The notes under the pieces were generated by a model. That model was not told the DNA's origin and did no database searches. It worked only from the letters and a program-made list of their open reading frames with translations. Shown here piece after piece: positions 3,271 through 48,074 of a stretch of 64,000 nucleotides of DNA. Made by a program: the position numbers and the translations under genes. Origin of the DNA: Ilumatobacteraceae bacterium (GTDB lineage: Bacteria; Actinomycetota; Acidimicrobiia; Acidimicrobiales; Ilumatobacteraceae). The stretch's first letter is position 1; every line of letters begins with the position of its first letter. The stretch covers positions 154,443 through 218,442 of the forward strand of contig CAWFLK010000021.1 in assembly GCA_963816635.1 (NCBI GenBank), in the 5' to 3' direction.

Positions 3271-5052
3271 GTGCTGACGAAGATCCTGATCGCCAACCGC
3301 GGTGAGATCGCGGTGAGGGTCATCCGCGGCGCCCGCGAGATGGGCATCGCCACGGTGGCGGTCTACTCCGACCTCGACCGCGACGCGCTGCACGTGCGCC
3401 TCGCCGACGAGGCGTATGCCCTCGGCGGCCGCACCGCGGCCGAGAGCTACCTCGACACCGAAGCGATCCTCGCCGCCGTCGGGCGCAGCGGTGCCGACGG
3501 CGTGCACCCGGGCTACGGGTTCTTCTCCGAGAACGCCGACTTCGCCCGGGCGATCACCGAGATGGGCGTGACGTTCATCGGGCCGCCGCCCGCGGCAATC
3601 GAGGAGATGGGCGACAAGGTGTCGAGCCGACGGGCGGCGCTGCGGGGCGGCGCGCCGATCGTGCCCGGCACCATGGAGTTCGCCGGCGGACCCGACGACA
3701 TCCGCGCCTTCGGCGTCGAGCACGGCTGGCCGGTCGCCATCAAGGCGGCGTTCGGTGGTGGCGGCCGCGGCATGAAGGTGGTGCAGGGCCCGGGCGAGGT
3801 CGACGAGGCGATGGCGTCGGCGCAGCGCGAGGCCAAGGCGTTCTTCGGACGCGACGAGGTGTACGTCGAGCGCTACCTCACGTGGCCGCGCCATGTCGAG
3901 GTGCAGGTGGTGGGCGATCAGCACGGCAACGTCGTGTGGGTGTCGACGCGTGACTGCTCGGCGCAGCGCCGTCACCAGAAGCTGATCGAGGAGGCGCCGG
4001 CGCCGGGGCTGCCCGACGGCGTCGAGGAGGCGATGGGAGCGGCTGCGGTGAAGGCGGCGGCGGCCGTCGGCTACACCAACGCCGGCACGGTGGAGTTCAT
4101 CTACCAGGACGGCGAGTTCTTCTTCCTGGAGATGAACACGCGACTGCAGGTCGAGCACCCGGTGACCGAGGCGATCACCGGCATCGACCTCGTCGAGTGG
4201 CAGCTCCGCGTGGCGTCCGGCGAACCGCTGCCGATGACCCAGGAGGAGGTCCTGGCGCAGCGCCGCGGTCACGCCATCGAGGTGCGCATCAACGCCGAGG
4301 ACCCGCGCGGCGGGGCCTTCCTGCCGTCACCGGGGACGATCACCTCGCTCGTGGCCCCCGACGGCTTCGGCGTCCGGTTCGACGCCGGGTACGCGGCCGG
4401 CGACACGGTGTCGCAGTTCTACGACAACCTGATCGGCAAGCTCGTGGTGTGGGGCCGCGACCGGCCGTCGGCGATCAGCCGGACGATCTGCGCCCTCGAG
4501 GAGATGGTGGTCACGGGCGTCGCCACCACGATCCCCGCCGATCTGGCGATCCTGCGCCACCCCGACTTCGCCGCCGTCGAGCACTCCACCAAGTGGGTGG
4601 AGGAGCGCCTCGACCTCAGCGGCGTGCCGGCGACGCCCGCCGTCGTCGACGACGGGGACGACGAGTCGGCAACCGTGCCCCGGCGCAGCACCGTCGAGGT
4701 CAACGGCAAGCGCTTCGACGTCACCGTGTGGGTCCCCGAGTCGGACGCACCCGCCGACGGTGGTGGTTCGCGGCGGGCCCCGGCGCGCAAGCGCAGCCGG
4801 GCGGCGACGAGTGCCGGCGCGGGTGCAGGAGGCGGCAGCGGCGACGTGACCGCACCGATGCAGGGCACGATCGTCAAGGTGCTCGTCGAGCCCGGCCAGG
4901 CCATCGGCGCCGGCGACGCCGTGGTGGTGCTGGAGGCGATGAAGATGGAGAACCAGATCTCGGCCGAGCGCGCCGGCACGGTGCGCGAGGTCAAGGTGGC
5001 CGCCGGCGACACCGTCGGTCAAGGCGACGTGCTCGCCGTCATCGGCGACTGA
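3271..5052 (+). CDS. accA: acyl-CoA carboxylase alpha chain (biotin carboxylase with fused biotin carboxyl carrier domain)
   Basis: KILIANRGEIAVRVIRGAREMGIATVAVYS is the biotin carboxylase N-terminus. ATP-grasp and BC C-terminal regions follow. The C-terminal EAMKMENQI is the biotinyl-lysine motif. The 593-aa frame is intact. Confidence 0.9.
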   Translation: MLTKILIANRGEIAVRVIRGAREMGIATVAVYSDLDRDALHVRLADEAYALGGRTAAESYLDTEAILAAVGRSGADGVHPGYGFFSENADFARAITEMGVTFIGPPPAAIEEMGDKVSSRRAALRGGAPIVPGTMEFAGGPDDIRAFGVEHGWPVAIKAAFGGGGRGMKVVQGPGEVDEAMASAQREAKAFFGRDEVYVERYLTWPRHVEVQVVGDQHGNVVWVSTRDCSAQRRHQKLIEEAPAPGLPDGVEEAMGAAAVKAAAAVGYTNAGTVEFIYQDGEFFFLEMNTRLQVEHPVTEAITGIDLVEWQLRVASGEPLPMTQEEVLAQRRGHAIEVRINAEDPRGGAFLPSPGTITSLVAPDGFGVRFDAGYAAGDTVSQFYDNLIGKLVVWGRDRPSAISRTICALEEMVVTGVATTIPADLAILRHPDFAAVEHSTKWVEERLDLSGVPATPAVVDDGDDESATVPRRSTVEVNGKRFDVTVWVPESDAPADGGGSRRAPARKRSRAATSAGAGAGGGSGDVTAPMQGTIVKVLVEPGQAIGAGDAVVVLEAMKMENQISAERAGTVREVKVAAGDTVGQGDVLAVIGD

Positions 5053-5933: not shown

Positions 5934-7303
5934 CTATTCGGCCGCTTCCGCCAGCGCTTCGGCGAGGGCGGGGTGCACGAGCAGGCTCTCGACGATGTCG
6001 GTGACCTTGAGGTGGGCGGTGACGGCGAGGGCGATCACCGAGATCAGCTCGGCGGCGTGGCGTCCGACGATCGACCCGCCGAGCACCACACCCGTGGCCG
6101 GGTCGGAGACGATCTTGACGAACCCCTGGGTGTTGTTGTTGATCAAGGCCTTGGGGGTGGCCGAGAACGGCACCTTGGTGACGCGGATCTTGCGGCCCGA
6201 CGCGAACGCCTCGGTCTCGGCGAGGCCGACGTCGGCGATCTCGGGTTCGGTGAAGATGGCCGACGCCGCCTTGTCGTAGTCGAGGTGACGGTGCTGGCGG
6301 CTGTGCAGCCCCATGATCCGCTCGGCCACCTTGCGGCCCTGCATCGCCGCCACCGACGACAGCGGCAGCTTGCCGCTGACGTCTCCGGCGGCATAGATGT
6401 GGCCGACGTTGGTGACGCAGTTGTGGTCGATCGGCACGTACCCGCCGGCATCGACGGCCACCCCGGCACGCTCGAGGGCGAGATCGGCCGAGTTGGGCAC
6501 CGATCCGATGGCGAGCACGGCGTGGCTCGATCGCACGACGCGACCGTCGTCGCAGCGCACCACGACGTCGTCCTGTTCGTGGTCGCGGTCGATGGCGATC
6601 GCACGCGCTCCCTTCAGCAGCTTGACGCCGCGGTTGAGGAAGTCGTCCTCGAGCACCGCCGCCACCTCCGGGTCCTTGGCCGGCAGCACCTGCTGGCGCG
6701 ACACGACGAGGGTCACCGCGGCGCCGAACGAGGAGAACATGTGCACGAACTCCACGCCCGTGACGCCCGACCCGACCACCGTGATGCTTCGTGGGAATTC
6801 CTTGGGCGGGTAGCAGTCGCGGGTGGTGAGGATGCGGTCACCGTCGGGGTGGCACCACTCGGGGATGCGCGGGCGCGAGCCGGTCGCGATGAGCGCCACG
6901 TCGAAGCCGACCACTTCGAGCCCGTCGACCGTCTCGATCTCGGCGGTGTTGGGCGAGGCGAACCGCGCCGTGCCGGTGATCATGCGCACGCCCTGGCTCT
7001 CCAGCAGCTGCGTGGTGCCGGCCTGCAGGTGTGACTTGATGCCCTCGATCCGCGCCGTCGAGCGCGTCGGTGTCGACCTCGGGCGTGGTCTCCTCGAGGC
7101 CCATCCCGGTGGAACGGCGCAGGAAGGTCATCGCCCCGCCGGTGGCGATCATCGTCTTCGACGGGATGCAGTCGAGGAGGTGGGCGGCGCCGCCGATCAG
7201 GTCGCGCTCGACCATCGTCACCTCGGCGCCGTACCGGGCGGCGTACGTGGCGGCGTTGTTGCCGGCGGGGCCGCCGCCGATGATCAGCAGGTGCGTTGCC
7301 ATC
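5934..7303 (-). CDS. lpdA: LpdA-like flavoprotein disulfide reductase / NAD(P)H quinone reductase (Rv3303c type), apparent single-base frameshift near 7050
   Basis: The N-terminal part MATHLLIIGGGPAGNNAA ... GGAAHLLDCIPSKT (FAD site, single Cys) is in the frame of ORF 6838..8733. The C-terminal 351 aa are in ORF 5934..6989 (IYAAGDVSGKLPL, dimerisation domain). Restoring one base at GACGGCGCG|GATCGAG joins the two frames. Confidence 0.75.
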
Positions 7304-7404
7304 GCTGTCGAGCGTAAGGCACCCAGCGCGGACACGCGCCGCCGGCGCATCGGAGGCCCCGGCTGCGATGCCCAGCCGGTACCGTCGGACGACGATGACG
7401 GAGC

Positions 7405-8934
7405 GTGACCGACGACGACGCGGCGCCCGCCGAGTTCGCCGAACTGACGGGCAGCGGGCTGGCGGCCGAACGGGCGCGCCGGCAGCACCGCGTCGACGAC
7501 CTGCGGGCCGCCGGCGTCGAGCCGTATCCCTACCGCTTCGACCGCACGCACTCGGCGGCCGAGGTGCGCGAGTTGGCAGCCGCGCTGGCCCCGGGCAGCG
7601 AGACCGACGTGGAGGTGAGCGTCGCCGGCCGCGTGCTCCGCCTGCGCGACTCGGGCAAGCTGATCTTCGCCACCCTGGCCGACCGTGGCGCCGACGTGCA
7701 GCTGTTCGTGTCCAAGGGCGACGTGGGCGACACCGCCTTCGCCGACATCAAGTCGCTCGACCGCGGCGACTGGGTCGGCGCCCGCGGGCGGGTGATGACG
7801 ACGCGCGCCGGTGAGATCTCGGTGCGGGTGAGCGAGCTGCGCCTGCTCGCCAAGTCGATCCGCCCGCTGCCCGACAAGTGGCACGGGCTGTCCGACACCG
7901 ACACCCGCTACCGCCAGCGCTACGTCGACCTCGTGGTCAACGCCCCGGCGCGCCGGGTGTTCGAGGTGCGTCACGCGGTGATCGCCAGCTTCCGGCGCAC
8001 GCTCACCGAGCGTGGCTTCATCGAGGTGGAGACGCCGGTGCTGCACGTCGAGGCCGGTGGCGCCACGGCGCGCCCGTTCGTCACCCACCACAACACCCTC
8101 GACATGCCGATGTACCTGCGCATCGCCCTCGAGCTGCACCTCAAGCGGCTGCTCGTCGGCGGCATGGACCGGGTGTTCGAGATCGGGCGGATCTTCCGCA
8201 ACGAGGGGATGAACACCACCCACAACCCGGAGTTCACGATGATGGAGAGCTACGAGGCCTTCGCCGACGTGTCCGACGTGATGGCGCTGACCGAGGCGCT
8301 GGTGACCAACGCCGCCCGCGACGCGCTCGGCACGACGGTCGTCGAGATCCGCGGGGAAGCGGTCGAGCTCACCGCGCCGTGGCCGCGGGCGCGGATGGTC
8401 GACCTCGTGTCGGCGGCCGCCGGTGAGCCCGTCCACCCGGCGCGTCCGCTCGAGGAGATGCGCTCGCTCGCCGACCGCCACCGCGTGCGCTGGGACGCGG
8501 CGTGGGGGTCGGGCAAGATCGTCGAAGAGCTCTTCGAGGCACTGTGCGAGCACGACATCGTGCGCCCCACGTTCGTGACCGGCCACCCGGTGGAGGTGTC
8601 GCCCCTGTCGCGCCTCGATCCCGACGACCCGCTGCTGACCGACCGCTTCGAGTTGTTCATCGACGGCCACGAGTACGCCAACGGCTACAGCGAGCTCAAC
8701 GACCCCGTCGAGCAGCGGGTGCGCTTCGAGCACGAGGCCAAGGCCAAGGCGGCCGGCGACGACGAGCGCGGCGGGGTCGACGAGGACTACCTCCGCGCCC
8801 TCGAGTACGGCATGCCGCCCGCCGGCGGTCTGGGCGTGGGGATCGACCGGCTGGTGATGCTGCTGGCCGGCGTCGACACGATCCGTGACGTCATCCTCTT
8901 CCCGACCCTGCGACCCGAACCGGAGGGCCGGTGA
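7405..8934 (+). CDS. lysS: lysine--tRNA ligase, class II
   Basis: The 509-aa protein has an OB-fold anticodon domain and class II motifs ([33 protein letters not shown]). The start is GTG. The stop overlaps the dapD start (GTGA). Confidence 0.95.
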
Positions 8935-9869: not shown

Positions 9870-9961
9870 CAGCCCGTCTCTCATCGGAGTGTTGAACCGC
9901 GTCCGAGTGTGGGGCGTCGCGACGGGGGTCGCCCGACCCTCCGATGGTGCGTCGTGCTCGG

Positions 9962-10615
9962 TCAGCGCAGCTTCGTGGCGAACCCGATCGGCGGCGAGGT
10001 GACCCAGGTGACGGCGAGATCGGGTCGGGCGGCGAGCGCCTCGGCGTAGGCGAGCGTGTCCGCGGCCCATGCGGCGCCCGCGAAACGCACCCAGTCGTTG
10101 CGCGGCCGGCCGGTGAGCGCGTCGACGAGCAGGAACCAGTTCGCCATCGTCAGGACGCCGCCGGGCCGTAGACGCTCGACCATCACGTCGAGGTGGTCGG
10201 GCGCTCGGGCGAACCAGGCGTCGTCGTGGACGAGGTCGAAGGTCCCGCTGAGCGCGGCCAACACGTCGGCGACGCGGCCGGTCTCGTACGCCACGGAGGC
10301 GGCGACACCCGCATCCTCGGCGATGGCGCGCGCCTCGGCGATGTGGGTCGGGTCGTCGTCGACGCCGAGGACGCTCCCGCCATCGGCCACGGCACTCGCC
10401 AGCCACAGCGTGGAGTAGCCGAGCCCGCAACCGAGGTCGAGCACGCGGCGGGCGCCGCTGGCGCGGGCGATCGACGCGACGAGTTGCATCGCCGGCCCGC
10501 CGGCGTGGTGCAGCCCACAGCCGTGCCGGCGCTGGTGCGCCTCACTGCGTTCCGCCACCCATGCGAAGGGGTCGCCACCGGCGAGCTCGAGCAGTCGACG
10601 GGCGACGTCGTCCAC
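9962..10615 (-). CDS. class I SAM-dependent O-methyltransferase (family 3, caffeoyl-CoA OMT-like)
   Basis: VLDLGCGLGYSTLWLA is the SAM-binding motif I. The protein is 217 aa. Confidence 0.7.
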   Translation of the reverse strand: MDDVARRLLELAGGDPFAWVAERSEAHQRRHGCGLHHAGGPAMQLVASIARASGARRVLDLGCGLGYSTLWLASAVADGGSVLGVDDDPTHIAEARAIAEDAGVAASVAYETGRVADVLAALSGTFDLVHDDAWFARAPDHLDVMVERLRPGGVLTMANWFLLVDALTGRPRNDWVRFAGAAWAADTLAYAEALAARPDLAVTWVTSPPIGFATKLR

Positions 10616-10728
10616 CGGCCCAGGATGGCACGACGCACGTGCCGTTCACTGCGGACGGCGCGCGGACGTGGACCGAACCGACGCTTTCGGGGCCATCCGG
10701 GTGGCCGCGCCGCGCGAGGCTGGGAACG

Positions 10729-11830: not shown

Positions 11831-12763
11831 TCACGCGGGGACGAGCGGGGCCTCGGGCTCGGCGCGGGCGATCAGGGCCAGGCCGGCCAGCACGATCGCC
11901 GCGCCGAGCCAGCCGGCGGGGTCGAGGCGCTCGTCGAGCACCACCATGGCGGCGATGGCGGCGGTGACCGGCTCGGCGAGCGTGAGCGTGACGGCCGTCG
12001 AGGTCGCCAGCGTGCGCAGGCCGTAGCCGTAGAGCAGGTAGGCGACGGTGGTGGCGACGATCCCGAGGTGCAGCACCATCAGCAGGCCCGACCAGGTGGC
12101 GAGCCAGGCGAGCGGCTCGACGAACAGGAACGGGGCCAGGCCGAGCGCACCGAGCGTGAAGATCCACGCCATGACGGTTCCCGAGTCGGCGCCGGCCTCG
12201 ACGAGCGACTTGGCCGCGGTGGCGAACAGGGCGTAGCCGAGCCCGGCGAGCAGCGAGCAGAGCACCCCGAACGCCCCCACCGGCGCGTCCCCGGTGCGCT
12301 GCGACAGCACCAGCACCGCCCCGCCCAGCACGGCCAGCGCCGTGGCGGCCGCCCAGCGGTTGCTCGGCCGCCGATGCAACACCACCAGCTCCCACGCGCC
12401 GACGAACACCGGGCCACTGCCCAGCGCCACCAGCGTGCCGACGGCGACGCCGTTGTGATCGGTGCCGGCGAAGAACGCCGGCTGGTAGATCGCCACGCCG
12501 AGGGCGCCGATCAGCACGGCCGGCAGCTGACGGCGGCGCGGCACGAGCGGTGTCGTCGCGCGGCCGGTCGTGCGGTGGCGCCGGCTGACGACGACGGCGA
12601 CGAGCACCAACCCGGCGGCACCGATCAGGATGCGCATCGCCCCGACGCCGAGCGCCGTCGCGTCGTCGGGTCCGAGGGCCTTGGCGGTGCCGGTGGTGCC
12701 GAACGCGACGGCGGCGCCGAGCACGGCGAGGCGGTCGAGCGGCCAGCGGCGCGCGGCGGTCAT
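11831..12763 (-). CDS. EamA/DMT-family membrane transporter
   Basis: The protein has ten-TM-like hydrophobic segments. The start is probably MTAARRW at 12763, overlapping the RidA stop. Confidence 0.7.
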   Translation of the reverse strand: MTAARRWPLDRLAVLGAAVAFGTTGTAKALGPDDATALGVGAMRILIGAAGLVLVAVVVSRRHRTTGRATTPLVPRRRQLPAVLIGALGVAIYQPAFFAGTDHNGVAVGTLVALGSGPVFVGAWELVVLHRRPSNRWAAATALAVLGGAVLVLSQRTGDAPVGAFGVLCSLLAGLGYALFATAAKSLVEAGADSGTVMAWIFTLGALGLAPFLFVEPLAWLATWSGLLMVLHLGIVATTVAYLLYGYGLRTLATSTAVTLTLAEPVTAAIAAMVVLDERLDPAGWLGAAIVLAGLALIARAEPEAPLVPA

Positions 12764-13152
12764 CGGGCGGCGATGACGGCGATCTCGAGCAACCACTCGG
12801 GACGCACCAGGCGCGGCACCGTCACCAGCGTCGATGCCGCGAGCCGGCCGCCGAGGAAGCGATCACGGGCCGCCATCACCAGACCGAGCGATGCCAACTC
12901 GTCGACCACGACGTAGGTCGTCACCGACACGACGTCGGCCGGGCCCATGCCCGCCTCGTCGAGGAGGGTGGCGATGTTCGACCACACCACCGCCGCCTGC
13001 GCCTCGACGCCGTCCGGCACCGTGCCGTCGGGCGCCACCGGCACCACCCCCGACGTGTGCAGCAGGTGCGCCGACCCGTCGCTCACCACGGCGTGGGCGT
13101 AGTTGGCCGCCGGCGGCGCCAACCCGACCCCCGACACCACCCGGTTCACCAC
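12760..13152 (-). CDS. RidA/YjgF family (reactive intermediate deaminase-like) protein
   Basis: The 130-aa protein reads ANYAHAVVSDGSAHLLHTSGVVP ... DVVSVTTYVVVDELA ... ASTLVTVPRLVRPEWLLEIAVIAA, which is the YjgF fold. Confidence 0.8.
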   Translation of the reverse strand: MVNRVVSGVGLAPPAANYAHAVVSDGSAHLLHTSGVVPVAPDGTVPDGVEAQAAVVWSNIATLLDEAGMGPADVVSVTTYVVVDELASLGLVMAARDRFLGGRLAASTLVTVPRLVRPEWLLEIAVIAAR

Positions 13153-13187
13153 CCCCCGATCCTTCCACCCCCCGCCCCCAGGAAAAT

Positions 13188-13239
13188 GATTTCCACAAGC
13201 AGAATCGTGCAGATCTGCACGATTCCGCGCCCCAGAATC
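13188..13239 (+). repeat. copy A of the novel palindrome-containing element (family 1)
   Basis: GATTTCCACAAGCAg-AATCGTGCAGATCTGCACGATT-cCGCGCCCCAGAATC. The 22-bp core is a perfect palindrome. A C-rich tract (CCACCCCCCGCCCCC) lies just upstream. The copy sits 38 bp upstream of the secreted-protein gene. Confidence 0.7.
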
Positions 13240-13277
13240 CGCGGAACCGATGGCCCGCCGGCAGCGTCGAACCGATC

Positions 13278-14082
13278 ATGCACGCACCGCTCCTCGCGCT
13301 GACGCTCGTCGCCGGCCTCGCCACGACGTCATCGCCACCGGACGACGCCGCCGACGCCATCGCCTTCGAGACGATCGCGGTCATGTCCGACACCACCGGC
13401 ATCAACCTCGTGCCCCACGTGCCGATCGCCGTCCGCAACGCCGACGACCTTGCCGACCTGGAGGGGATCATGAGCGACGGCTTCTCCGGCGACCTGCCTG
13501 ACCGCGTGATGGCCGCGGTCGAACAGGTGCCCACCGGCATGATGCCGCTCGTCGGGATCATCGACACCAGCTGCAGTCCGCCGTCGACCCCCGGCTTGTC
13601 GATCGACGCCGACGGCAACGTCGCGATGTACGCCCTCGACCCGGTGCCGAACCAGCCGGAGTGCTTCGTGGCCGTCGACACGGTCGCCGTGCTCGCCGTC
13701 GATCCGGCCGACGTCCCGATCGGCGCCGCCGGCCCCGCCGAGCTGCTCGCCTTCGAACGCCTCTCCGGCTCGGTGACCGGCGCTCCCCCGGCCGTCGAGC
13801 TCGGGCCCGACGCCACCGCGGCCCTGTCGGCGATGGTCGGCGCCGACGGCGACGTGCCGAACCTCCCGCCGCTCGTCAAGGGGACGCGCCGGTTCGCGTT
13901 CGTCACCGCCGGCTGCCAGGACGCCACGGCCGAGCTGCTGGTCACCCGCCGCTTCCTCGCAGCCACGCCTCTACACCGATCCGGTCGACCTCGGCATCGC
14001 CTGCGCCCAGGCCGAGTTCTTCCTCACGGTGTTCGACGTCCCCGATTCGGTCGTGTGGCCGAACGCCGCCCTCGGCCGCTGA
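13278..14082 (+). CDS. hypothetical exported protein (signal-peptide-like N-terminus), apparent frameshift near 13968
   Basis: The protein starts MHAPLLALTLVAGLATTSSPP and the ORF is Asp/Ala-rich with high GC3. GC3 collapses after ...QDATAELLV. The adjacent frame continues protein-like (LYTDPVDLGIACAQAEFFLTVFDVPDSVVWPNAALGR) to a TGA at 14080. The listed 720-aa ORF 12834..14996 is a read-through artefact that fuses this gene, repeat B and the aldolase. Confidence 0.45.
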
Positions 14083-14086
14083 TCGC

Positions 14087-14138
14087 GATTCTGGGGCGCG
14101 AAATCGTGCAGATCTGCACGATTTTGCTTGTGGAAATC
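14087..14138 (-). repeat. copy B of the family 1 element, inverted relative to copy A
   Basis: The reverse complement is GATTTCCACAAGCAa-AATCGTGCAGATCTGCACGATT-tCGCGCCCCAGAATC, which is 50 of 52 identical to copy A. It lies 4 bp after the exported-protein stop and 30 bp before the aldolase start. Confidence 0.7.
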
Positions 14139-14168
14139 ATCGACCGGGCGGGAAGTACCCTTGGACGC

Positions 14169-14996
14169 ATGGCTGTGATCGAGACCGGGGCCGGGGTCGG
14201 GGTGCGGACGATCGACGGGCGACCGCTGGTGCCACAGGAGACGACGCTCGACCTCCCGCCCACGTTCGCCACCGTCGACGACGAGCGCGCCCACCGCAAG
14301 GCCAAGCTGGCCGGGGCGCTGCGCATCTTCGGCAAGTTCGGCTTCTCCGAGGGCGTGGCGGGGCACATCACCGCGCGCGACCCCGAGTTCCCCGAGCTGT
14401 TCTGGGTCAACCCGTTCGGGATGAACTTCCGCCACATCCGCTCCAGCGACCTCATCCTCGTCGACCACGACGGCAACGTCGTCTACGGCACCCGCGCCGT
14501 CAACCGGGCGGCGTTCGTGATCCACTCGGCGATCCACGAAGCCCGCCCCGACGTCACCGCCGCCGCCCACTCGCACTCGCTCCACGGCAAGGCGTTCAGC
14601 TCGCTCGGCATCCCGCTGGCCCCGTTGACCCAGGACGCCTGCGTGTTCTTCGAGGACCACACGGTGATCGCCACCCAGGGCGGCGCCGTGGTCTACGACA
14701 TCGAGGCCGGCAAGGAGCTCGCCGCCGAGTTCACCACCGGCAAGGCGGCGATCCACCAGAACCACGGGCTGTTCACCGTCGGCGAGACCGTCGACGCCGC
14801 CGCCTACTGGTTCATCACGATGGAGCGCTCGTGCCAGGCCCAGCTCATCGCCATGGCCGCCGGCACGCCGCACGAGATCAACCGCGAGTACGCCACGTAC
14901 ACGCGCGACCAGACCGGCTACCCGCTCGCCGGGTGGTTCCAGTTCCAGCCGCTCTGGCACGAGATCTGCCGCACCGACCCTGACCTCTTCGACTGA
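14169..14996 (+). CDS. class II aldolase/adducin-family protein (fuculose-phosphate aldolase-like)
   Basis: MAVIETGAGV ... FGFSEGVAGHITARDPEFPELFWVNPFG ... AAHSHSLHGKAFSS. The His-rich zinc-site region is typical of class II aldolases. Confidence 0.75.
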   Translation: MAVIETGAGVGVRTIDGRPLVPQETTLDLPPTFATVDDERAHRKAKLAGALRIFGKFGFSEGVAGHITARDPEFPELFWVNPFGMNFRHIRSSDLILVDHDGNVVYGTRAVNRAAFVIHSAIHEARPDVTAAAHSHSLHGKAFSSLGIPLAPLTQDACVFFEDHTVIATQGGAVVYDIEAGKELAAEFTTGKAAIHQNHGLFTVGETVDAAAYWFITMERSCQAQLIAMAAGTPHEINREYATYTRDQTGYPLAGWFQFQPLWHEICRTDPDLFD

Positions 14997-29325: not shown

Positions 29326-29556
29326 GTGCGCCGCTCGACGGTGCTGCTCGTCGTGGTGTTCGTCGGGCTGGTCGTCCTCTACTTCTCGGTACGCACCGAG
29401 AAGATCGACTACCGGGGCGAACTGTTCGACGTCACCGAGGAGACCACCGCGTCAGGCCCTCCGGTGCGCCCGCTCGAGGGCTACGCGACGTGGTCGAGCC
29501 AGGGCGCGCAGAGCCCGTCGACGTCGCGGATCTGGATCCGGTCGCGATTGGCGTAG
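29326..29556 (+). CDS. small hypothetical membrane protein (76 aa)
   Basis: The ORF has a GTG start, one TM helix (VLLVVVFVGLVVLYF) and high GC3. It overlaps the convergent moeZ-like 3' end by about 75 bp. Confidence 0.25.
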   Translation: MRRSTVLLVVVFVGLVVLYFSVRTEKIDYRGELFDVTEETTASGPPVRPLEGYATWSSQGAQSPSTSRIWIRSRLA

Positions 29557-30649
29557 GTGACCTCGTTGGCCGGGTCGACCTGCAGCTTGAACGTGCGCAG
29601 CGTCATGTCGGTCGTGTCGATGGCGAGGATCCGCCCGATCAGCGGCTCGCCGATGCCGAGCAGCACCTTGATCGCCTCCAGTGCCTGGATCGAGCCGACG
29701 ATCCCGGGCAGCACGCCCAGCACGCCCGCCTCGGCACAGCTCGGCGCCAGCTCGGCCGGGGGCGGCTCGGGCACCATGTCGCGGTAGGTCGGCCCGACCA
29801 GCGGGTGGAAGACGCTGACCATCCCCTCGAAGCGGAAGATCGAGCCGTGGACCACCGGGATGCCGAGCTTCACGCTGGCGTCGTTCAACAGGTAGCGCGA
29901 GGGGAAGTTGTCGGCCCCGTCGACGATGACGTCGTAGCCGCTGATGATGTCGATGATGTTCTCGGCCGAGAGGCGGGTGTCGTACGTGACGACGTCGACG
30001 TCGGGGTTGAGCGCCACGAGCGTCTTCTTCGCCGAGTCGACCTTGCGATCGCCGATCCGGTCGATGTTGTGGAGGATCTGACGTTGCAGGTTGGAGGCGT
30101 CGACCTCGTCCATGTCGACGATGCCGAGCGTGCCGACGCCGGCCGCGGCGAGGTACAGCGCGGCGGGCGAGCCGAGTCCGCCGGCGCCGAGCAGTAGCAC
30201 CTTCGAGGCGAGCAGCTTGGACTGGCCCTCGACGCCGACCTCGGGCAGCAGCAGGTGGCGCATGTAGCGCACCTTCTGCTCGGGGGTGAGCGTCACCGGC
30301 GTCGTCCAGTCGCGGCCCTCGTCCTTCCAGCGCCCGAAGCCGCCGGCCATCGACACGACGTCGGCGTAGCCGAGCTCCTGCAGCGTGCGGGCGGCGAACG
30401 CCGAGCGGACGCCGGCGGCGCAGTACACGACGACGGGCGCGCCCTTGTCGACGAGGCGGCCCTCGACCTGGGCTTCGAGGTGCCCGCGGGGGATGTGCAC
30501 GGCGCCGGGAAGGGCGCCCTGGTCGTATTCGTCGGGTTCACGGACGTCGAGCACCACGGCGCCGGCGGCGATGCGCTCGGCGGCGTCGGCGGTGCCGACC
30601 TCGGTGATCTCGGCTTTCGCCGCCGACAGGAGATCGCGGAACGTAGCCA
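29483..30649 (-). CDS. rhodanese-ThiF/MoeB fusion (MoeZ-like adenylyltransferase/sulfurtransferase) with rhodanese N-terminal
   Basis: The N-terminal rhodanese domain has the active-site motif (VVVYCAAGVRSAFAART). The ThiF domain follows (KVLLLGAGGLGSPAALYLAAAGVGTLGIVDMDEVDASNLQRQILH). The start is MATFRDLL at 30649. Sequence upstream in the listed ORF is the antisense of the repeat. Confidence 0.8.
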
Positions 30650-30714
30650 TCACCCAAAGCCTACCCATCCGGTCGGGAATCGCTCCCCGCCCCTCCACCG
30701 GCCCGGAGGACGAA

Positions 30715-30838
30715 GATTTCCACAAGCATTTTCGAGCGTTTCTGCACGATTTCGCGACCAAGAATCGCGAGCACCGCGCTTGCAAAGATTCTGGGGCGCG
30801 AAATCGTGCGTTCCCGCACGATTTTGCTTGTGGAAATC
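30715..30838. repeat. head-to-head pair of family 1 elements (C1 30715-30766 forward, C2 30787-30838 reverse) forming a 124-bp composite palindrome
   Basis: The reverse complement of C2 is GATTTCCACAAGCAaAATCGTGCGggaaCGCACGATTtCGCGCCCCAGAATC, with 10-bp hairpin arms. C1 has the same flanks but a degenerate hairpin. C-rich and G-rich tracts flank both sides. It lies between the moeZ-like start (30649) and the flotillin start (30963). Confidence 0.7.
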
Positions 30839-30885
30839 TTCGGTCCTGGCGGGCGGGAGGCGGCGGGGGCGGGGGTTTCTCTTGA

Positions 30886-30945
30886 CCGGGGGCGGGGAGG
30901 GGCGTAGACCCGTAGGTAGACAGGTACAATACAAATCGCTCCGGA
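30886..30945 (+). promoter_or_regulatory. AT-richer island with TTGACC and TACAAT hexamers upstream of flotillin
   Basis: TTGACC lies at about 30887 and ...GTAGACAGGTACAATACAAATCG at about 30925-30945. The spacing between the two hexamers is not canonical, so this is only a candidate promoter. Confidence 0.25.
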
Positions 30946-30962
30946 AGGCGGCGTCCAACCAC

Positions 30963-33038
30963 ATGCTCCCCCTGATCCTCGGGATCGCCGCGATCGTGCT
31001 CGTCGCGATCGTGCTGTTCCAATCGTTCCACAACATCGGACCGGCCCAGGTCGGCCTGGTCACGAAGAAGATCGCCCGCAAGAGCCTCGCCCAGGGCAAC
31101 CCCGTCGCCCGCCACGGCGAGGCCGGCTACCAGGAGCGCCTGCTGATGCCCGGGCTGCGCGTCCGTCTCTGGCCCGTCTACGGCGTCAGCAAGCAGCCCT
31201 GGGTCCAGGTGCCCGCCGGCGAGATCGGCGTGGTCATCGCCCAGGTCGGCAACCCGATCAAGATCGGCGCCAAGAGCGCTGACTTCCGCCCGGAGTTCGG
31301 CAACTTCTCCAACCTCGGCGCGTTCATCGACAACGGCGGCCAGAAGGGCGTGCAGCGCCCGGTGCTGCCGCCGGGCACCCTGGTGCCGATCCACCCGGCG
31401 GCGTTCCTCGTGATCACCGCCAGCCGCGTGTACGGCGTGCCGGTGTCACGCACGGTCGCCGGCACGCCGGTCCCCGCCGGTCAGACGCTGCAGCCGTCGT
31501 CGTTCGGCCTCTCCGACGAGCAGCTGCGGGTCACGATCATCGGCCCGGTCGACGAGACCGACATGGTGGGCGTCATCACCGCCCTCGAGGGCGAACCGCT
31601 ACCCGCCGGTGACATCGCCAGCCGACTCGGCGGCTTCGAGGACGTGGTGGTGATGGAGCAGGCCGGCGCGTCGGATGCCGAGATCATCGATGTGCTGCTC
31701 GGGCGCAAGAACGAGCTGCACAACAACTACCAGGACTTCCAAGCCTTCATGGATCACGGCGGGCGCATCGGGCTGCAGCACGACACCCTGCTGTACGGCG
31801 CCTACCTGCTCAACCCGTTCCTCGTCGCCGTGGAGATGGTGCCGATGCTCGTGGTGCGCCAGGGCGAGGTGGCCGTGATGAAGAGCTTCGTCGGCCTGCC
31901 GACGCTCGACACCAGCGGCGTCGACTTCAAGTTCGGCTCGATCGTGCACCCCGGCCGGCGCGGGATCTGGCAGGAGCCGCTGCGCACGGGCAAGTACCCG
32001 CTCAACCCGCGCATCTACGCCACCGAGATCGTGCCCACGTCGATCCTGACCCTGAACTGGTCGAGCATCGTGAGCCAGGCCCACAACCTCGACGCCTCGC
32101 TCAGCCCGATCGAGGGCAAGAGCCGCGAGGGTTTCGTGTTCCGGATCGACCTGCAGGTGCAGATCCACGTGAGCGACACCAAGGCGCCGAAGGTCATCTC
32201 GATGGTCGGCACGATGCAGAACCTCGTCAACGAGGTGCTCCAGTCGGCGGTCGGCAACCACTTCCGCAACACGCTGCAGCGGCTCGAAGCGGTGCGCTTC
32301 ATCGAGACGCGCGACCAGGTGCAGGCGTCAGCGATGGAAGCGGTGACCCACTACCTCACCTCGTACGAGGTGGAGACGCGTGGTGTCTACATCCAGGACG
32401 TGGTCTTCCCCGAGCAGCTGGTGGAGGTGCTGACCCAGCGCGAGATCGCCAAGCAGGAGAAGGCGACGTTCCACGAGCAGCGCGAGGCGCAGAACGCCCG
32501 CATCGAGGTGGAGAAGGCCCGCGGCACCGCCGACATGCAGGGCCAGCTGGCGACGTCCCAGGTGTCGATCGAGATCAACTCGAACGCCGCCGAGGCGCGT
32601 GCCGCCCAGGCGCGAGGCGAGGCGGCCTACATCGAGACCACGGCTCGCGCCGAGGCGACGCGCATCGAGGCGATCGGACGCGCCGAGGCCACCAAGGTCG
32701 AAGCGGTCGGCCTGGCGGAGGCGACGGCGACCGAGGCGGTCGGCCTCGCCGAGGCCCGGGCGTACCAAGCTCAGGCCGACGCCCTCGGCCCGCAGGCGAC
32801 AGCGCTGGTGGCGGCGGTGAACGCCGTCGCCGAGGGACGCGTCAACGTCGTGCCGGAGGTTCTGGTGACCGGTGGTGGCAGCAGCATCGAGGGGCTCGCG
32901 GCGTCGCTCATCGGCCGCTTCGCCCCGCGTCCGCCGAACCGCAACGGCGGCAACGGGGATTCGCTGCCCCCGCCCCCGCCGGCGCCCGAGCTCGAGCTCG
33001 AGCTCGAGGTGGAGCCCGACCAGGCGTCGGCCGGCTGA
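30963..33038 (+). CDS. flotillin-like SPFH/band-7 protein with long C-terminal Ala/Glu-rich coiled coil
   Basis: The protein has an N-terminal TM helix (MLPLILGIAAIVLVAIVLF) and an SPFH domain. It ends with ...EAQNARIEVEKARGTADMQ ... EARAAQARGEAAYIETTARAEATRIEAIGRAEATKVEAVGLAEATATEAVGLAEA. The 691-aa frame is intact. Confidence 0.8.
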   Translation: MLPLILGIAAIVLVAIVLFQSFHNIGPAQVGLVTKKIARKSLAQGNPVARHGEAGYQERLLMPGLRVRLWPVYGVSKQPWVQVPAGEIGVVIAQVGNPIKIGAKSADFRPEFGNFSNLGAFIDNGGQKGVQRPVLPPGTLVPIHPAAFLVITASRVYGVPVSRTVAGTPVPAGQTLQPSSFGLSDEQLRVTIIGPVDETDMVGVITALEGEPLPAGDIASRLGGFEDVVVMEQAGASDAEIIDVLLGRKNELHNNYQDFQAFMDHGGRIGLQHDTLLYGAYLLNPFLVAVEMVPMLVVRQGEVAVMKSFVGLPTLDTSGVDFKFGSIVHPGRRGIWQEPLRTGKYPLNPRIYATEIVPTSILTLNWSSIVSQAHNLDASLSPIEGKSREGFVFRIDLQVQIHVSDTKAPKVISMVGTMQNLVNEVLQSAVGNHFRNTLQRLEAVRFIETRDQVQASAMEAVTHYLTSYEVETRGVYIQDVVFPEQLVEVLTQREIAKQEKATFHEQREAQNARIEVEKARGTADMQGQLATSQVSIEINSNAAEARAAQARGEAAYIETTARAEATRIEAIGRAEATKVEAVGLAEATATEAVGLAEARAYQAQADALGPQATALVAAVNAVAEGRVNVVPEVLVTGGGSSIEGLAASLIGRFAPRPPNRNGGNGDSLPPPPPAPELELELEVEPDQASAG

Positions 33039-34431: not shown

Positions 34432-35202
34432 GTTCGACCACCAACGCCGGGAGGACGTCGGAGATCGAGCCGCGCACCACCACGTCGGCGAGCTGGTCCA
34501 TCTCGGTCGGTGAGCCGTTGACGATCACGACCCGGGCACCGCTGCGCACGGCGATCGGTACGCAGTTCGCCACCGGGTAGACCGCGAGCGTCGAGCCCAC
34601 GGCGAGCAGCAGGTCGCACTCGGCGCTCACCCGCAGCGCCCGGTCGATCACCGCCGGCACGAGCGGCTGGCCGAACGAGATCGTGTCGCTCTTCAGGATC
34701 CCGTCGCCGCACGCGAGGCACCGCAGGTCGTCCTCGCCCACGGCGACCCGCTCCAGCGCCTCGGCCATCGGCCGGCGATCGCCGCACGTCCAGCACCGCG
34801 TCCACCACGCGGTGCCGTGCACCTCGACCACCAGGTCCGGGTCGCTGCCGGCGCGCTGGTGCAGCTCGTCGGTGTTCTGTGTCACGAGGGCGCGCAGCCG
34901 CCCGTCGCGTTCGAGCTCGACGATCACGCGGTGGCCGGCGTTCGGCTCGGCGCTCCACACCGGCGCTCGCACACGGGCCTGCCACGACGCTCGACGGACA
35001 TCGACGTCACCCAGGTAGTGCTGCAGCGAGGACGCCTTCTCGGCGCCGGGGTTGGTGGTCCACAGCCCGTTCGGCCCGCGGAAGTCGGGAATGCCCGAAT
35101 CGGTGCTGATGCCGGCACCGGTCACCACCACGATGCGTTCGGCCGCCTGCACCAGGGCACGCGCTTGGTCGACCGCCGTCGGTGGCTCGGGCGTGGCGAC
35201 CA
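34427..35202 (-). CDS. cobB: NAD-dependent protein deacylase, Sir2 family
   Basis: GAGISTDSGIPDFRG ... TQNTDELHQRAG ... zinc ribbon CWTCGD...CLACGDG ... GSTLAVYPVA. The start is MVATPEPP at about 35202. Confidence 0.85.
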
Positions 35203-35588
35203 TTCGCACCACTCTGGCAGACGCCCTTCCGTTCGGCGTCCGCGGCGACACCCCGGAGGAGCGATGGCGCCGACCGCTCCCTCCCCATGTTCGCCCCGCT
35301 GGAGGATCCCGCCGCCATGGCCCTCGCACTGTCCGCCCCCGACCCCGCCGACGAGCTCCGCGCCTCGTCGCCATCACACCGTGGATCGACCCGGTCGTCG
35401 ACACCCGCGGGTACGACCCGCGCTCGCGCTACGTCGAGCTGTTCTGGCTCGGCACCCTCGGCCGACGGGCACGTGGTTGCTGCGCCGGCTGGTGTCCGGC
35501 CTCGACGAGCACCCGGACGGCTACCGCGTCGACCTGGGAGCGACCGCCCGGGCGATGGGGGAGACGCCACGCCGGCACCGGCGGCGGG
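35194..35588 (+). repeat. tandem duplication copy 1 (degenerate, about 90% identity with indels)
   Basis: GCGACCATTCGCACCACTCTGGCAGACGCCCTTCCGTTCGGCGTCCGCGGCGACACCCCGGAGG... recurs at 35589. Copy 1 carries several indels and begins on the cobB start codon. Confidence 0.7.
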
Positions 35589-35985
35589 GGTGCGGCGACC
35601 ATTCGCACCACTCTGGCAGACGCCCTTCCGTTCGGCGTCCGCGGCGACACCCCGGAGGTGCGATGGCGCCGACCGCTCCCTCCCGCACATCGCACCGACG
35701 GAGGATCCCGCCACCATGACCATTGCCGAGTCCACGTCCGCCCCTGACCCCGCCGACGAGCTCCCGCGCCTCGTCGCCATCACACCGTGGATCGACCCGG
35801 TCGTCGACACCCGCGGTTACGACCCTCGCTCGCGCTACGTCGAGCTGTTCTGGCTCGGCACCCTCGGGCCGACGGCCACGTGGTTGCTGCGCCGGCTCGT
35901 CGCCGGCCTCGACGAGCACCCGGACGGCTACCGCCTCGATCTCGCGGCGACCGCCCGGGCGATGGGGCTGAGCTACCACACCGGC
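35589..35985 (+). repeat. tandem duplication copy 2 (contains the intact 5' end of the downstream gene)
   Basis: See copy 1. This copy provides the start codon and first roughly 90 codons of the 35716..36301 gene. Confidence 0.7.
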
Positions 35986-46897: not shown

Positions 46898-46900
46898 CCG

Positions 46901-46952
46901 GCGAAGTGTGAGCCACGCGTACGGATTTCCGTACGCGTGGCTCACACTTCGC
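46901..46952. repeat. copy 1 of the family 2 near-perfect palindrome (46-bp core 46904-46949)
   Basis: gcgAAGTGTGAGCCACGCGTACGGAtttCCGTACGCGTGGCTCACACTTcgc has a 22-bp stem and a 2-nt loop. It begins 4 bp after the nudix stop. Confidence 0.75.
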
Positions 46953-47040
46953 CTCGATCCTCGTCACGGGACTTCACCGGTCGCGCCCGGTGAGCCTGGC
47001 GGTGAGCCCACCGGTGAGGGCAGGAGTGCACCGTGCCCAC

Positions 47041-47990
47041 ATGGACGAGCGCGCCCGGCGGACGTTGATCAGACGAGCGATGGCCCAGCACGGTGTCATC
47101 ACCCGCCACGACGCCACCGCCCTCAACTTCGACCGGCGCCGCATCACGACAGCGCTGCGGGCCGGGTGGCTCGCCGAGCCTCTGCCGGGAGTGCTGGTGC
47201 TCACCGACACACCCGCGACCTGGCACCAACGCCTGGCCACCGTCGTCCACTCTGCGGGCGGGCGCGGCGTGGCCTCCCACCGATCGGCCGCGCGCCTGCA
47301 TGGCTTCGATGGTCTCGAGTCGGCGGGCGACGCGGTGATCGAGGTCAGCGTCACCCGGCGCTTCCGCCTCGACCCGGCCGCGGCCACCGTCACGCACCAC
47401 GTCACGCCGCTCGATGCCGTCGACGTCACCAGCGTGTCGGGCATCGCGTGCACGACCCGAAGCCGCACGTTGTGCGACCTGGGCGCGGTGTGCGATCGGC
47501 GGATGGTCGGTCGGGCGCTGACCTCCGCTCGACGCTCGGGCATCGACCTCCGGGCCGTCCGCGCCGCGGCCGAACGCCTCCACCGGCCAGGGCAATCGGG
47601 CACCGGCGTGATCATGCGTCTGCTCGACGGCATCCCGTGCGAGGGACGGTTGCCGGCGACCTGGTTCGAGGAGTTGCTCCACCTGTGCCTCACCGATCGC
47701 GGCTCCCGCCGGTTCTGCCCCAGTATCCGATCCGTGACGGGCAGGGACGGATCGTCGCCCGCACCGATCTTGGAATCCCATCGGTGAAGCTCGGCTCGAG
47801 GCACACAGCCGGCGCTTCCACTTCGGGCCGGACGCCGAGCGACTCGACGAGGACCGCGACCTCGCCGTCGCGAGGTGCGGGTGGGAGCTCATCTACCTCG
47901 GGTGGTACGCCACGCGGCGTCCCGCCGACGTCCTGCGGGTGGTGAAGGAGGTGACCGCGCTCGGACGCACGCGCTCGCCGCGCCCGGCGG
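47041..47990 (+). pseudogene. AbiEi-antitoxin-like N-terminal domain + DUF559 (Vsr-like endonuclease fold) protein, two apparent frameshifts
   Basis: The N-terminal MDERARRTLIRRAMAQHGVITRHDATALNFDRRRITTALRAGWL ... lies in frame A. ...LPPVLPQYPIRDGQGRIVARTDLGIP is in frame B. ...LEAHSRRFHFGPDAERLDEDRDLAVARCGWELIYLGWYATRRPADVLRVVKEV is in frame C. This three-part arrangement is the typical architecture of the multi-copy actinobacterial DUF559 proteins. Confidence 0.6.
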
Positions 47991-47992
47991 CG

Positions 47993-48038
47993 AACTGTGA
48001 GCCACGTGTACGGAAATCCGTACGCGTGGCTCACACTT
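47993..48038. repeat. copy 2 of the family 2 palindrome, inverted relative to copy 1
   Basis: AACTGTGAGCCACGTGTACGGaaaTCCGTACGCGTGGCTCACACTT. Its reverse complement differs from copy 1 at two positions, and the asymmetric centre (AAA versus TTT) shows the inversion. It ends 36 bp before the ybaK start. Confidence 0.75.
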
Positions 48039-48074
48039 GGCCAAATGCTCGGCGGGGGCGGCAAGGATGGCGCG

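Follow-up and report, generated by a model that had tools for sequence, protein, structure and literature searches.

A 64-kb stretch of DNA from an Ilumatobacteraceae bacterium (72% G+C; the whole stretch is referred to here as the window) contains two 52-bp units, designated c1 and c2, that lie in inverted orientation on either side of a single gene for an exported protein, between a ridA gene and a class II aldolase gene. Two further units of the same type form a head-to-head dimer between divergent moeZ-like (29484-30650, minus strand) and flotillin-like (30963-33038, plus strand) genes. The units were characterized in the window and in related genomes and metagenomes, and the features on which the analysis centers are as follows.

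12760-13152, minus strand: RidA gene, upstream neighbor of c1
13188-13239, plus strand: solitary unit c1, co-oriented with the downstream exported-protein gene (nhmmer profile E value, 2.9e-15)
13188-13201, plus strand: module A of c1 (GATTTCCACAAGCA)
13202-13225, plus strand: module H of c1 (hairpin/palindrome)
13226-13239, plus strand: module B of c1 (CGCGCCCCAGAATC)
13203-13224 (in c1) and 14102-14123 (in c2), both strands: perfect 22-bp palindrome AATCGTGCAGATCTGCACGATT
13278-14082, plus strand: enclosed exported-protein gene, a conserved hypothetical with a signal-peptide-like N terminus and four conserved Cys residues
14087-14138, minus strand: solitary unit c2, inverted relative to c1 (profile E value, 7.8e-17)
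14169-14996, plus strand: class II aldolase gene, downstream neighbor of c2
30715-30838: head-to-head dimer, composed of a plus-strand unit (30715-30766), the 20-nt spacer GCGAGCACCGCGCTTGCAAA (30767-30786), and a minus-strand unit (30787-30838)

A sequence-only reading of this DNA had reported the inverted pair c1/c2 as 50 of 52 identical; both the positions and the identity were confirmed, with the substitutions falling at unit positions 15 and 38. Unit c1 reads GATTTCCACAAGCAGAATCGTGCAGATCTGCACGATTCCGCGCCCCAGAATC, and the inverted repeat continues at lower identity beyond the units (13175-13239 and 14087-14151; 65 nt, 89%). Exactly two matches to the 22-mer were found in the window and none in 100 dinucleotide-preserving shuffles. 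As had been claimed, this 22-mer is a perfect palindrome, but the BglII site at its center is only one of many centers in the family. The ridA start codon is 35 nt from c1, and c1 is 38 nt from the ATG of the enclosed gene; c2 begins 4 nt past the stop codon of that gene and ends 30 nt ahead of the aldolase ATG. On the plus strand, c2 consists of a hairpin followed by TTTTGCTTGTGG, with a predicted RNA fold of −23.4 kcal/mol (z, −5.0). The dimer at 30715-30838 folds into one long hairpin (−72.5/−68.5 kcal/mol; z, −10.3/−8.7). A search of the window with the family profile recovered these four units and no further copy. Rfam gave no match at gathering thresholds across the whole window and no match over any unit at E ≤ 1 (30600-30960 and 13100-14220).

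A pattern scan of one genome per species (TTTCCACAAGCA-N15-GCACGAT) returned 36 loci, 24 of which (29 matches on 17 contigs) belonged to a single metagenome-assembled genome (MAG), Ilumatobacteraceae bacterium MFD04944.bin.2.195 (CAVRBV01). One of the remaining loci came from an Acidimicrobiales MAG, and 11 were single matches in unrelated taxa without the rest of the unit. Because the pattern demanded GCACGAT and so missed units with GCTCGA arms, the species range of the family is underestimated. Looser searches brought the total in CAVRBV01 to at least 46 units (44 plus a dimer at locus L039) at a minimum of 28 intergenic sites on 17 contigs. Locus L011 of this MAG is orthologous to 6.4 to 15.2 kb of the window at about 95% identity; the consensus search in related genomes that the sequence-only reading had proposed therefore yielded many copies in a 95%-identical genome, not just four. 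A second pattern, run against metagenomes, retrieved 53 short soil contigs carrying 72 units, while viral contigs and plasmids held no copy. In total, 97 loci were fetched, and precomputed Pfam lists covered the loci of six relatives (L037 to L042) orthologous to about 3 to 41 kb of the window.

Each 52-bp unit is assembled from three modules: a 14-mer (A), a 22- to 24-bp palindrome with a variable center (H), and a second 14-mer (B). Over more than 100 copies, module A, GATTTCCACAAGCA, is 100% conserved and the outer half-sites ATCG...CGAT do not vary. Module H takes the form (A/T)3-TCG-W-GC-N6-GC-W-CGA-TTT, and module B the form CGCG-NNNN-RGAATC, written CGCGNNNNRGAATC. The six central bases of H vary widely, AGATCT and GCGCGC being the two commonest centers in the metagenome set, and each of these gives a perfectly palindromic 22-mer. 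Among 38 distinct units, which are related to one another, stem pairs 18-20/33-35 and 22-23/30-31 (five pairs) are invariant and the inner pairs covary (24-29 as GC, GU, or AU; 25-28 as UA, GC, or CG). The covariation score over these related copies was 0.141, compared to 0.097 in shuffles, and none of 500 shuffles reached it.

Most often, two units stand head to head around a spacer of some 20 bp, and the resulting dimer of about 123 bp can form a single long hairpin. Two dimer subfamilies are distinguished by their spacer, which is either GCGAGCACCGCGCTTGCAAA or the palindromic AGAGATGGCGCCATCTCT. Of 27 sites in the MAG, 16 are dimer or trimer sites (including one trimer, L015) and 11 are solitary units; 52-bp mini forms with the arrangement A-H-A' were found at L009 and L077. 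Predicted folds range from −68 to −80 kcal/mol for dimers (z, −9 to −14) and from −17 to −23 kcal/mol for solitary units (z, −5 to −6). Every dimer begins and ends with a 14-bp A module, and AA/TT often prolongs the inverted repeat. A conserved outer extension of the element was considered and rejected, as the flanks are C-rich with a loose CCCGGRG..AA pattern and are not homologous. The head-to-head pair at 30715-30838 had been interpreted as an empty version of the c1/c2 arrangement; the pair is present, but it represents the normal dimeric form of the family rather than an empty carrier. Dimers at nonhomologous sites are up to 98% identical, the example being this dimer and the copy at L016.

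Every copy is intergenic. About 24 arms have a gene 3' end as their outer flank, with the stop codon 0 to 32 nt away and in a few cases built partly from the first bases of the unit, and about 20 arms have a gene start there. Dimers were found between convergent, tandem, and divergent genes. Solitary units are polar: transcription of the next gene runs away from the B end at eight MAG or window loci and at eight metagenome loci, with the opposite polarity at three (c2, L045, and L067). Counted over informative loci, about 15 of 18 show the unit in the same direction as the gene downstream. They mostly contain perfect 22-bp palindromes and lie 17 to 110 nt upstream of the next gene, and the genes downstream of them are unrelated (an acyltransferase, GlgP, AcpS, an ATP-dependent DNA ligase, a large regulator, and the exported protein). 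The orientation bias fits either selection against the T-tailed orientation in co-directional gene pairs or strand-biased insertion. Of the roughly seven informative solitary units, three are accompanied, within 3 kb, by an inverted partner located where the downstream transcription unit ends; by our own estimate, element density would predict roughly 6%. These cases are c1/c2, the plus-strand unit at 4723 of L017 with a dimer at 7336-7458 around glgP, and the dimer at 1474-1595 of L001 with a minus-strand unit at 4064. Target-site duplications, which the sequence-only reading had suggested looking for, were not seen: no direct repeat surrounds any of the 49 arms examined, the flanks being mutually inverted and C-rich.

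Element sites are largely stable between related genomes. The MAG (L039) and L040, whose MoeZ is 94% identical, have the dimer of 30715-30838 at the orthologous site; L041 and L042 have another gene order at this site and no element. Seventeen soil contigs are orthologous to MAG loci (about 67 to 97% identity), and most element sites coincide between them. The trimer at L015 corresponds to a dimer at the orthologous site L054, and in one filled/empty pair the 27 nt between convergent genes of L007 correspond in L048 to a dimer plus 13 nt, with no target-site duplication. One soil contig, L069, joins the flanks of two dimers, L026 and L004, that both lie on CAVRBV010000013.1; it reflects either an inversion by recombination between copies or an assembly chimera. 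Inheritance of the family is mostly vertical.

Sequence change within the unit is concentrated at the center of the palindrome. In 20 orthologous unit pairs with 92 to 99% flank identity, 43 of 120 center positions differed, as did 10 of 40 positions at stem pair 21/32, but only 17 of the remaining 836; turnover of the center is about 15 times faster than that of the rest of the unit. The changes largely swap recurrent variants or their reverse complements (GTCTAC/GTAGAC and AGAAAC/GTTTCT), and orthologous copies likewise swap between the palindrome cores CGTGCAGATCTGCACG and CGAGCGCGCGCGCTCG. Such switches are the expected product of exchange between copies or of template switching at the palindrome, and the copies appear to be homogenized by sequence exchange.

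Homologues of the enclosed protein were sought in a collection of 5.8 billion proteins, and six were found. The loci that inform the history of the 13188-14138 segment are the following.

L037: protein 90% identical; gene order EamA-RidA, enclosed gene, aldolase-EamA; both units at the same positions
L038: protein 65% identical; gene order EamA-RidA, enclosed gene, aldolase-EamA; both units at the same positions
L096: protein 49% identical; RidA upstream; both units, the downstream one cut by the contig end
L097: protein 46% identical; RidA and the gene adjacent; neither unit
L042, a more distant relative: gene absent; TauD-RidA divergent from the aldolase; no units

The window, L011, L037, L038, and L096 have both units, and the gene occupies the same syntenic position, in the same orientation to RidA, in six assemblies down to 46 to 49% protein identity. 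No homologue was found in another context, as all six lie either here or on contigs too short to tell. Gene and units are separable, because L097 has the gene beside RidA without either unit; since they are separable and the gene was never seen elsewhere, recent transport of the gene as cargo is ruled out. The sequence-only reading had proposed checking relatives for presence or absence of the 950-bp unit; in L097 the gene stays in place and the 52-bp units are missing. It had also described a single exported-protein gene between the copies as an insertion; the single gene stands, provided that a frameshift is allowed for, while the insertion does not. The enclosed gene is a resident gene and no part of the repeat family, and the remaining history is an unpolarized gain or loss of two units around it.

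The stop codon of the enclosed gene is reached only via a +1 frameshift near 13960, and the corrected product has 268 amino acids, compared to 267 in homologue P0001. Without the frameshift the reading frame runs into that of the aldolase, and P0002 (464 amino acids) is such a fusion product; a different frameshift occurs in the orthologue of the gene in L011 (~6130-6940). These frameshifts are either long-read assembly errors or signs of gene decay. The protein is acidic, of the exported type, and without a HUH motif; it matched no Pfam family, and structure prediction from five sequences was poor (mean pLDDT, 58).

Conservation of the units themselves far exceeds that of the surrounding DNA. 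When the window is compared with L038 or L096, 0 to 4 of 44 noncentral unit positions differ and the 14-mer is intact, with the adjacent intergenic DNA barely alignable; units have remained nearly unchanged while neighboring proteins have diverged to about 50% identity. The c1/c2 centers are AGATCT/AGATCT in the window, AGACCC/AGACCC in L011, and GCGCGC/GCGCGC in L038 and L096, so that they match in four of five genomes, L037 being the exception. That the rare AGACCC is common to both units in L011 argues for exchange between the c1 and c2 arms; in the other genomes the matched centers are partly expected by chance, since AGATCT and GCGCGC are the commonest variants.

Overall, we consider it probable that c1 and c2 are solitary members of a dispersed, structured, noncoding intergenic repeat family of Ilumatobacteraceae that resembles the REP/BIME (REPIN) or ERIC repeats. 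The suggestion that the family was previously undescribed held up: it has many copies, is noncoding and hairpin-forming, and shows occasional gain or loss, and no published description of it was found in Rfam or in the searchable literature. Literature hits to the 14-mer were chance primer matches only, and searches on REPIN/RAYT in Actinobacteria and on Ilumatobacter repeats returned nothing relevant to this lineage. Spread of such a family would be rare and might follow a hairpin-dependent route, with an enzyme acting in trans, either of a single-stranded-DNA type (RAYT, IS200/IS605) or through recombination; insertion would proceed without target duplication. Uniformity could then be maintained by exchange between copies (through template switching at the palindrome or ectopic gene conversion), by selection, or by both, and copies would be tolerated or used at gene boundaries. 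At the locus considered here, two units may have become fixed on both sides of a gene that was already present, with gene conversion between the arms keeping c1 and c2 similar. Because c2 presents a hairpin and then TTTTGCTTGTGG so soon after the stop codon, it is plausible as a 3' hairpin, and it probably serves as a terminator or stabilizer of the mRNA of the enclosed gene.

The likeness to REP, BIME, and REPIN repeats lies in short extragenic palindromes with a variable center, present in tens of copies per genome, that mostly occur as inverted doublets with a short spacer able to form a long hairpin, with singlets and small clusters as well; both also lack target-site duplications and show mostly vertical inheritance, long persistence, and rare duplication. 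REP superfamilies carry a GTAG (GT[AG]G) or CGTC tag at the foot of the palindrome (PMC3733652). Here neither tag is present, and the single GTGG is found on the reverse strand, 7 nt past the 3' foot. At 52 bp the unit is also longer than REP units, it is built from modules, and conservation peaks in a 14-mer that is not part of the palindrome. No RAYT turned up in the sequence inspected, and the eight phyla in which tagged REPs are listed do not include Actinomycetota (PMC3733652). Solitary units in this family are as conserved as dimers, whereas REP singlets have been described as decaying remnants. Because the tag is absent and the limited sequence available yielded no tyrosine transposase, we do not file these repeats in the REP-RAYT family. 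The sequence-only reading had not recognized the motif as a described REP, attC, or IS end. Integron attC sites, which have the consensus RYYYAAC...GTTRRRY and share one orientation, each behind a cassette ORF, were rejected because these cores are missing and the copies are inverted, dispersed, and often paired.

The ERIC (IRU) and Correia (NEMIS) elements are palindromic, intergenic repeats of about 100 to 160 bp in enterobacteria and Neisseria that resemble miniature inverted-repeat transposable elements (MITEs) and duplicate a TA target. The dimer described here is similar in size (about 123 bp), is an imperfect palindrome that would form a long hairpin if transcribed, and lies near gene ends and starts whatever the orientation of the genes. 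It differs in that no duplication is seen, each arm has its own internal hairpin, half elements also stand alone, and the sequence resembles neither of the two. Of the hallmarks of MITEs, terminal inverted repeats on a small noncoding element are present and the target-site duplication is absent. The TIRtrons are families of terminal inverted repeats (TIRs) flanking RAYT-like (tyrosine-transposase) genes (Di Nocera et al. 2013, PMC3733652). Like the present family, they are moderately abundant, lack GTAG, are in some cases doubly palindromic, and occur as single, dimeric, and grouped copies (PMC3733652). In contrast to TIRtrons, the one gene seen here between two solitary units codes for an exported protein that is acidic and has no HUH motif.

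Several observations weigh against assigning c1 and c2 to a mobile repeat family of this kind. No mobilizing enzyme came to light: a crude screen for the HUH-Y1 motif gave no hit among 141 open reading frames from about 200 kb surrounding MAG copies, the Pfam lists of the L037 to L042 loci contain no transposase, Y1_Tnp included, and the 97 fetched loci, viral contigs, and plasmids showed no autonomous insertion sequence with the same termini. The GTAG/CGTC tag is missing from both strands of the consensus, and gain or loss was seen once only and is not polarizable. The hairpin is not uniformly maintained, since 20 of 38 units have a mismatch at stem position 21/32, a count on which base-pair selection at that position was rejected. 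With respect to a role at transcript ends, a consensus terminator scan found no canonical terminator at c1 or c2, and dimers between tandem genes showed no orientation bias (5 versus 3 by hand tally), so that the terminator test based on this bias gave no signal. Finally, conservation of solitary units across deep divergence exceeds that expected for decaying selfish remnants and speaks for a function in the host or for a binding protein.

The sequence-only reading had favored a MITE-like element with cargo, in which the units would be terminal inverted repeats that brought the gene into the ridA/aldolase space, the pair at 30715-30838 being the empty version. The near-identical inverted 52-bp ends, a multicopy family with one filled/empty polymorphism, the solitary units of L017 and L001 with an inverted partner beyond the downstream transcription unit, and the joint absence of gene and units between the aldolase and TauD-RidA in L042 would all suit such an element. 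It is nevertheless very unlikely, since the gene is syntenic in six assemblies whose deepest protein identity is 46 to 49%, lies next to RidA in L097 without units, and has all its homologues in this context or on too-short contigs; moreover, there is no target-site duplication, no transposase was found in the sequence inspected, the dimer is the most frequent form and has its own conserved spacer subfamilies, and other solitary units flank unrelated genes. The second proposal had been a palindromic operator for a dimeric regulator with a small regulon, which we widen to include sites for an abundant DNA-binding protein (nucleoid-associated, insulator-like, or DnaA-titrating). The fully conserved 14-mer and the invariant half-sites in over 100 copies, the co-oriented solitary units with mostly perfect palindromes upstream of genes, and the retention of units at orthologous positions far beyond neutral flanks are compatible with protein binding. 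The 14-mer also holds aTTTCCACA, an 8/9 match to the DnaA-box consensus, TTWTNCACA, which we regard as a lead only. An operator in the narrow sense is argued against because about half of the arms follow stop codons, some of them between convergent genes, and neighboring genes are unrelated. In addition, orthologous copies switch between cores, the palindrome center and one stem position vary freely even between such copies, and the promoter-like TAnnnT-N7-ATG motif of moeZ is conserved in relatives without the element. To our knowledge, the palindrome matches none of the operators of LexA (TCGAAC-N4-GTTCGA), DasR, Rex, CRP/GlxR, IdeR, Zur, McbR, and others. These findings do not contradict the wider sense. 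Protein binding as the explanation, in either sense, seems unlikely to us.

The core, with inverted arms of about 9 to 10 bp around a 6-bp variable center, has the geometry of lox- or dif-type sites, and pdif modules likewise have a gene between two inverted sites; the 950-bp segment might thus be invertible or exchangeable by site-specific recombination. Hypervariable centers between fixed arms, c1/c2 centers that are identical in four of five genomes though differing between genomes, and the L069 contig joining the flanks of two MAG copies are in keeping with recombination. We nevertheless judge it highly improbable. Orientation of the segment to RidA is the same in six assemblies, the Pfam lists of L037 to L042 contain no recombinase gene, the bracketing pairs of L017 and L001 share no centers, and identity of AGATCT and GCGCGC centers is partly chance because these are simply the commonest; L069 may be an assembly chimera, and 50 or more chromosomal recombination sites would be hazardous. 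In contrast to pdif, lox, and dif sites, these units are chromosomal in at least 50 copies and show no nearby recombinase gene, no orientation polymorphism, and no similarity to dif. Pairing of the upstream unit with the inverted downstream unit over 52 nt could alternatively form an mRNA panhandle that affects stability or RNase III processing. The recurrence of the bracketing architecture (three of about seven informative solitary units) and the covarying c1/c2 centers agree with this. However, with only 35 nt and 38 nt on its two sides, c1 is probably overlapped or followed by the promoter of the enclosed gene, which would leave c1 outside the mRNA; most solitary units are partnerless, and bracketing partners elsewhere differ in their centers, so we attach little credence to an RNA bracket. 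Quite unlikely, too, is that the units are host cis-elements acting at the DNA level rather than selfish or neutral repeats, namely, boundary or recombination sites read via the 14-mer plus a lox/dif-like core, that bracket transcription units. If they were, the 6-bp center would be the crossover or exchange region, explaining centers that are hypervariable yet matched between c1 and c2, and Acidimicrobiia would have in this family a chromosomal equivalent, spread over many sites, of the pdif-type gene modules.

Other features of the window were noted alongside the repeat family. A promoter scan found no sigma-70 promoter around c1 and c2. TAnnnT stands exactly 7 nt ahead of the ATG of both the aldolase and moeZ genes and is kept in relatives (L037 to L042): the aldolase has TACCCT-N7-ATG directly downstream of c2 (14153-14171, plus strand; conserved in L038), and moeZ has TAGGCT-N7-ATG (30651-30670, minus strand; conserved in relatives without the element). 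This conserved spacing suggests that the aldolase and moeZ transcripts may be leaderless. Just upstream of the exported-protein start, GCGTCGAAC at 13262-13270 is conserved in L096 and in L097, which has no units; it equals one half-site of the actinobacterial SOS box. A second, unrelated pair of palindromes (46900-46953 and 47989-48042; 54 nt, near-perfect, 94% mutually complementary) brackets a gene at 46990-47787 (plus strand) with an AbiEi_4 N-terminal domain, apparently frameshifted near its 3' end, between NUDIX and YbaK/tRNA-editing genes; this palindrome is absent from all 97 fetched loci. About 780 bp of the window (9882-10726), just upstream of a LigD primase-polymerase gene, is absent from L011 (3516-3582). 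The window also contains a tandem duplication at 35173-35967 (a unit of about 400 bp in two copies, 84 to 98% identical) and a 33-nt periodic repeat at 32649-32756 in the C-terminal coding part of the flotillin-like (Band 7) gene, which encodes AEATxxEAxGxAEA peptide units.

For annotation, the segment at 13188-14138 should not be labeled a mobile element. Inverted copies and dimers that form long hairpins can break or misjoin assemblies, of which L069 is a possible example. The invariant 14-mer may serve as a lineage marker in soil metagenomes. Dispersed palindromic repeats have been well studied in Proteobacteria and hardly at all in Actinomycetota, and the family described here is useful for asking whether such repeats are selfish replicators or structures of use to their host.

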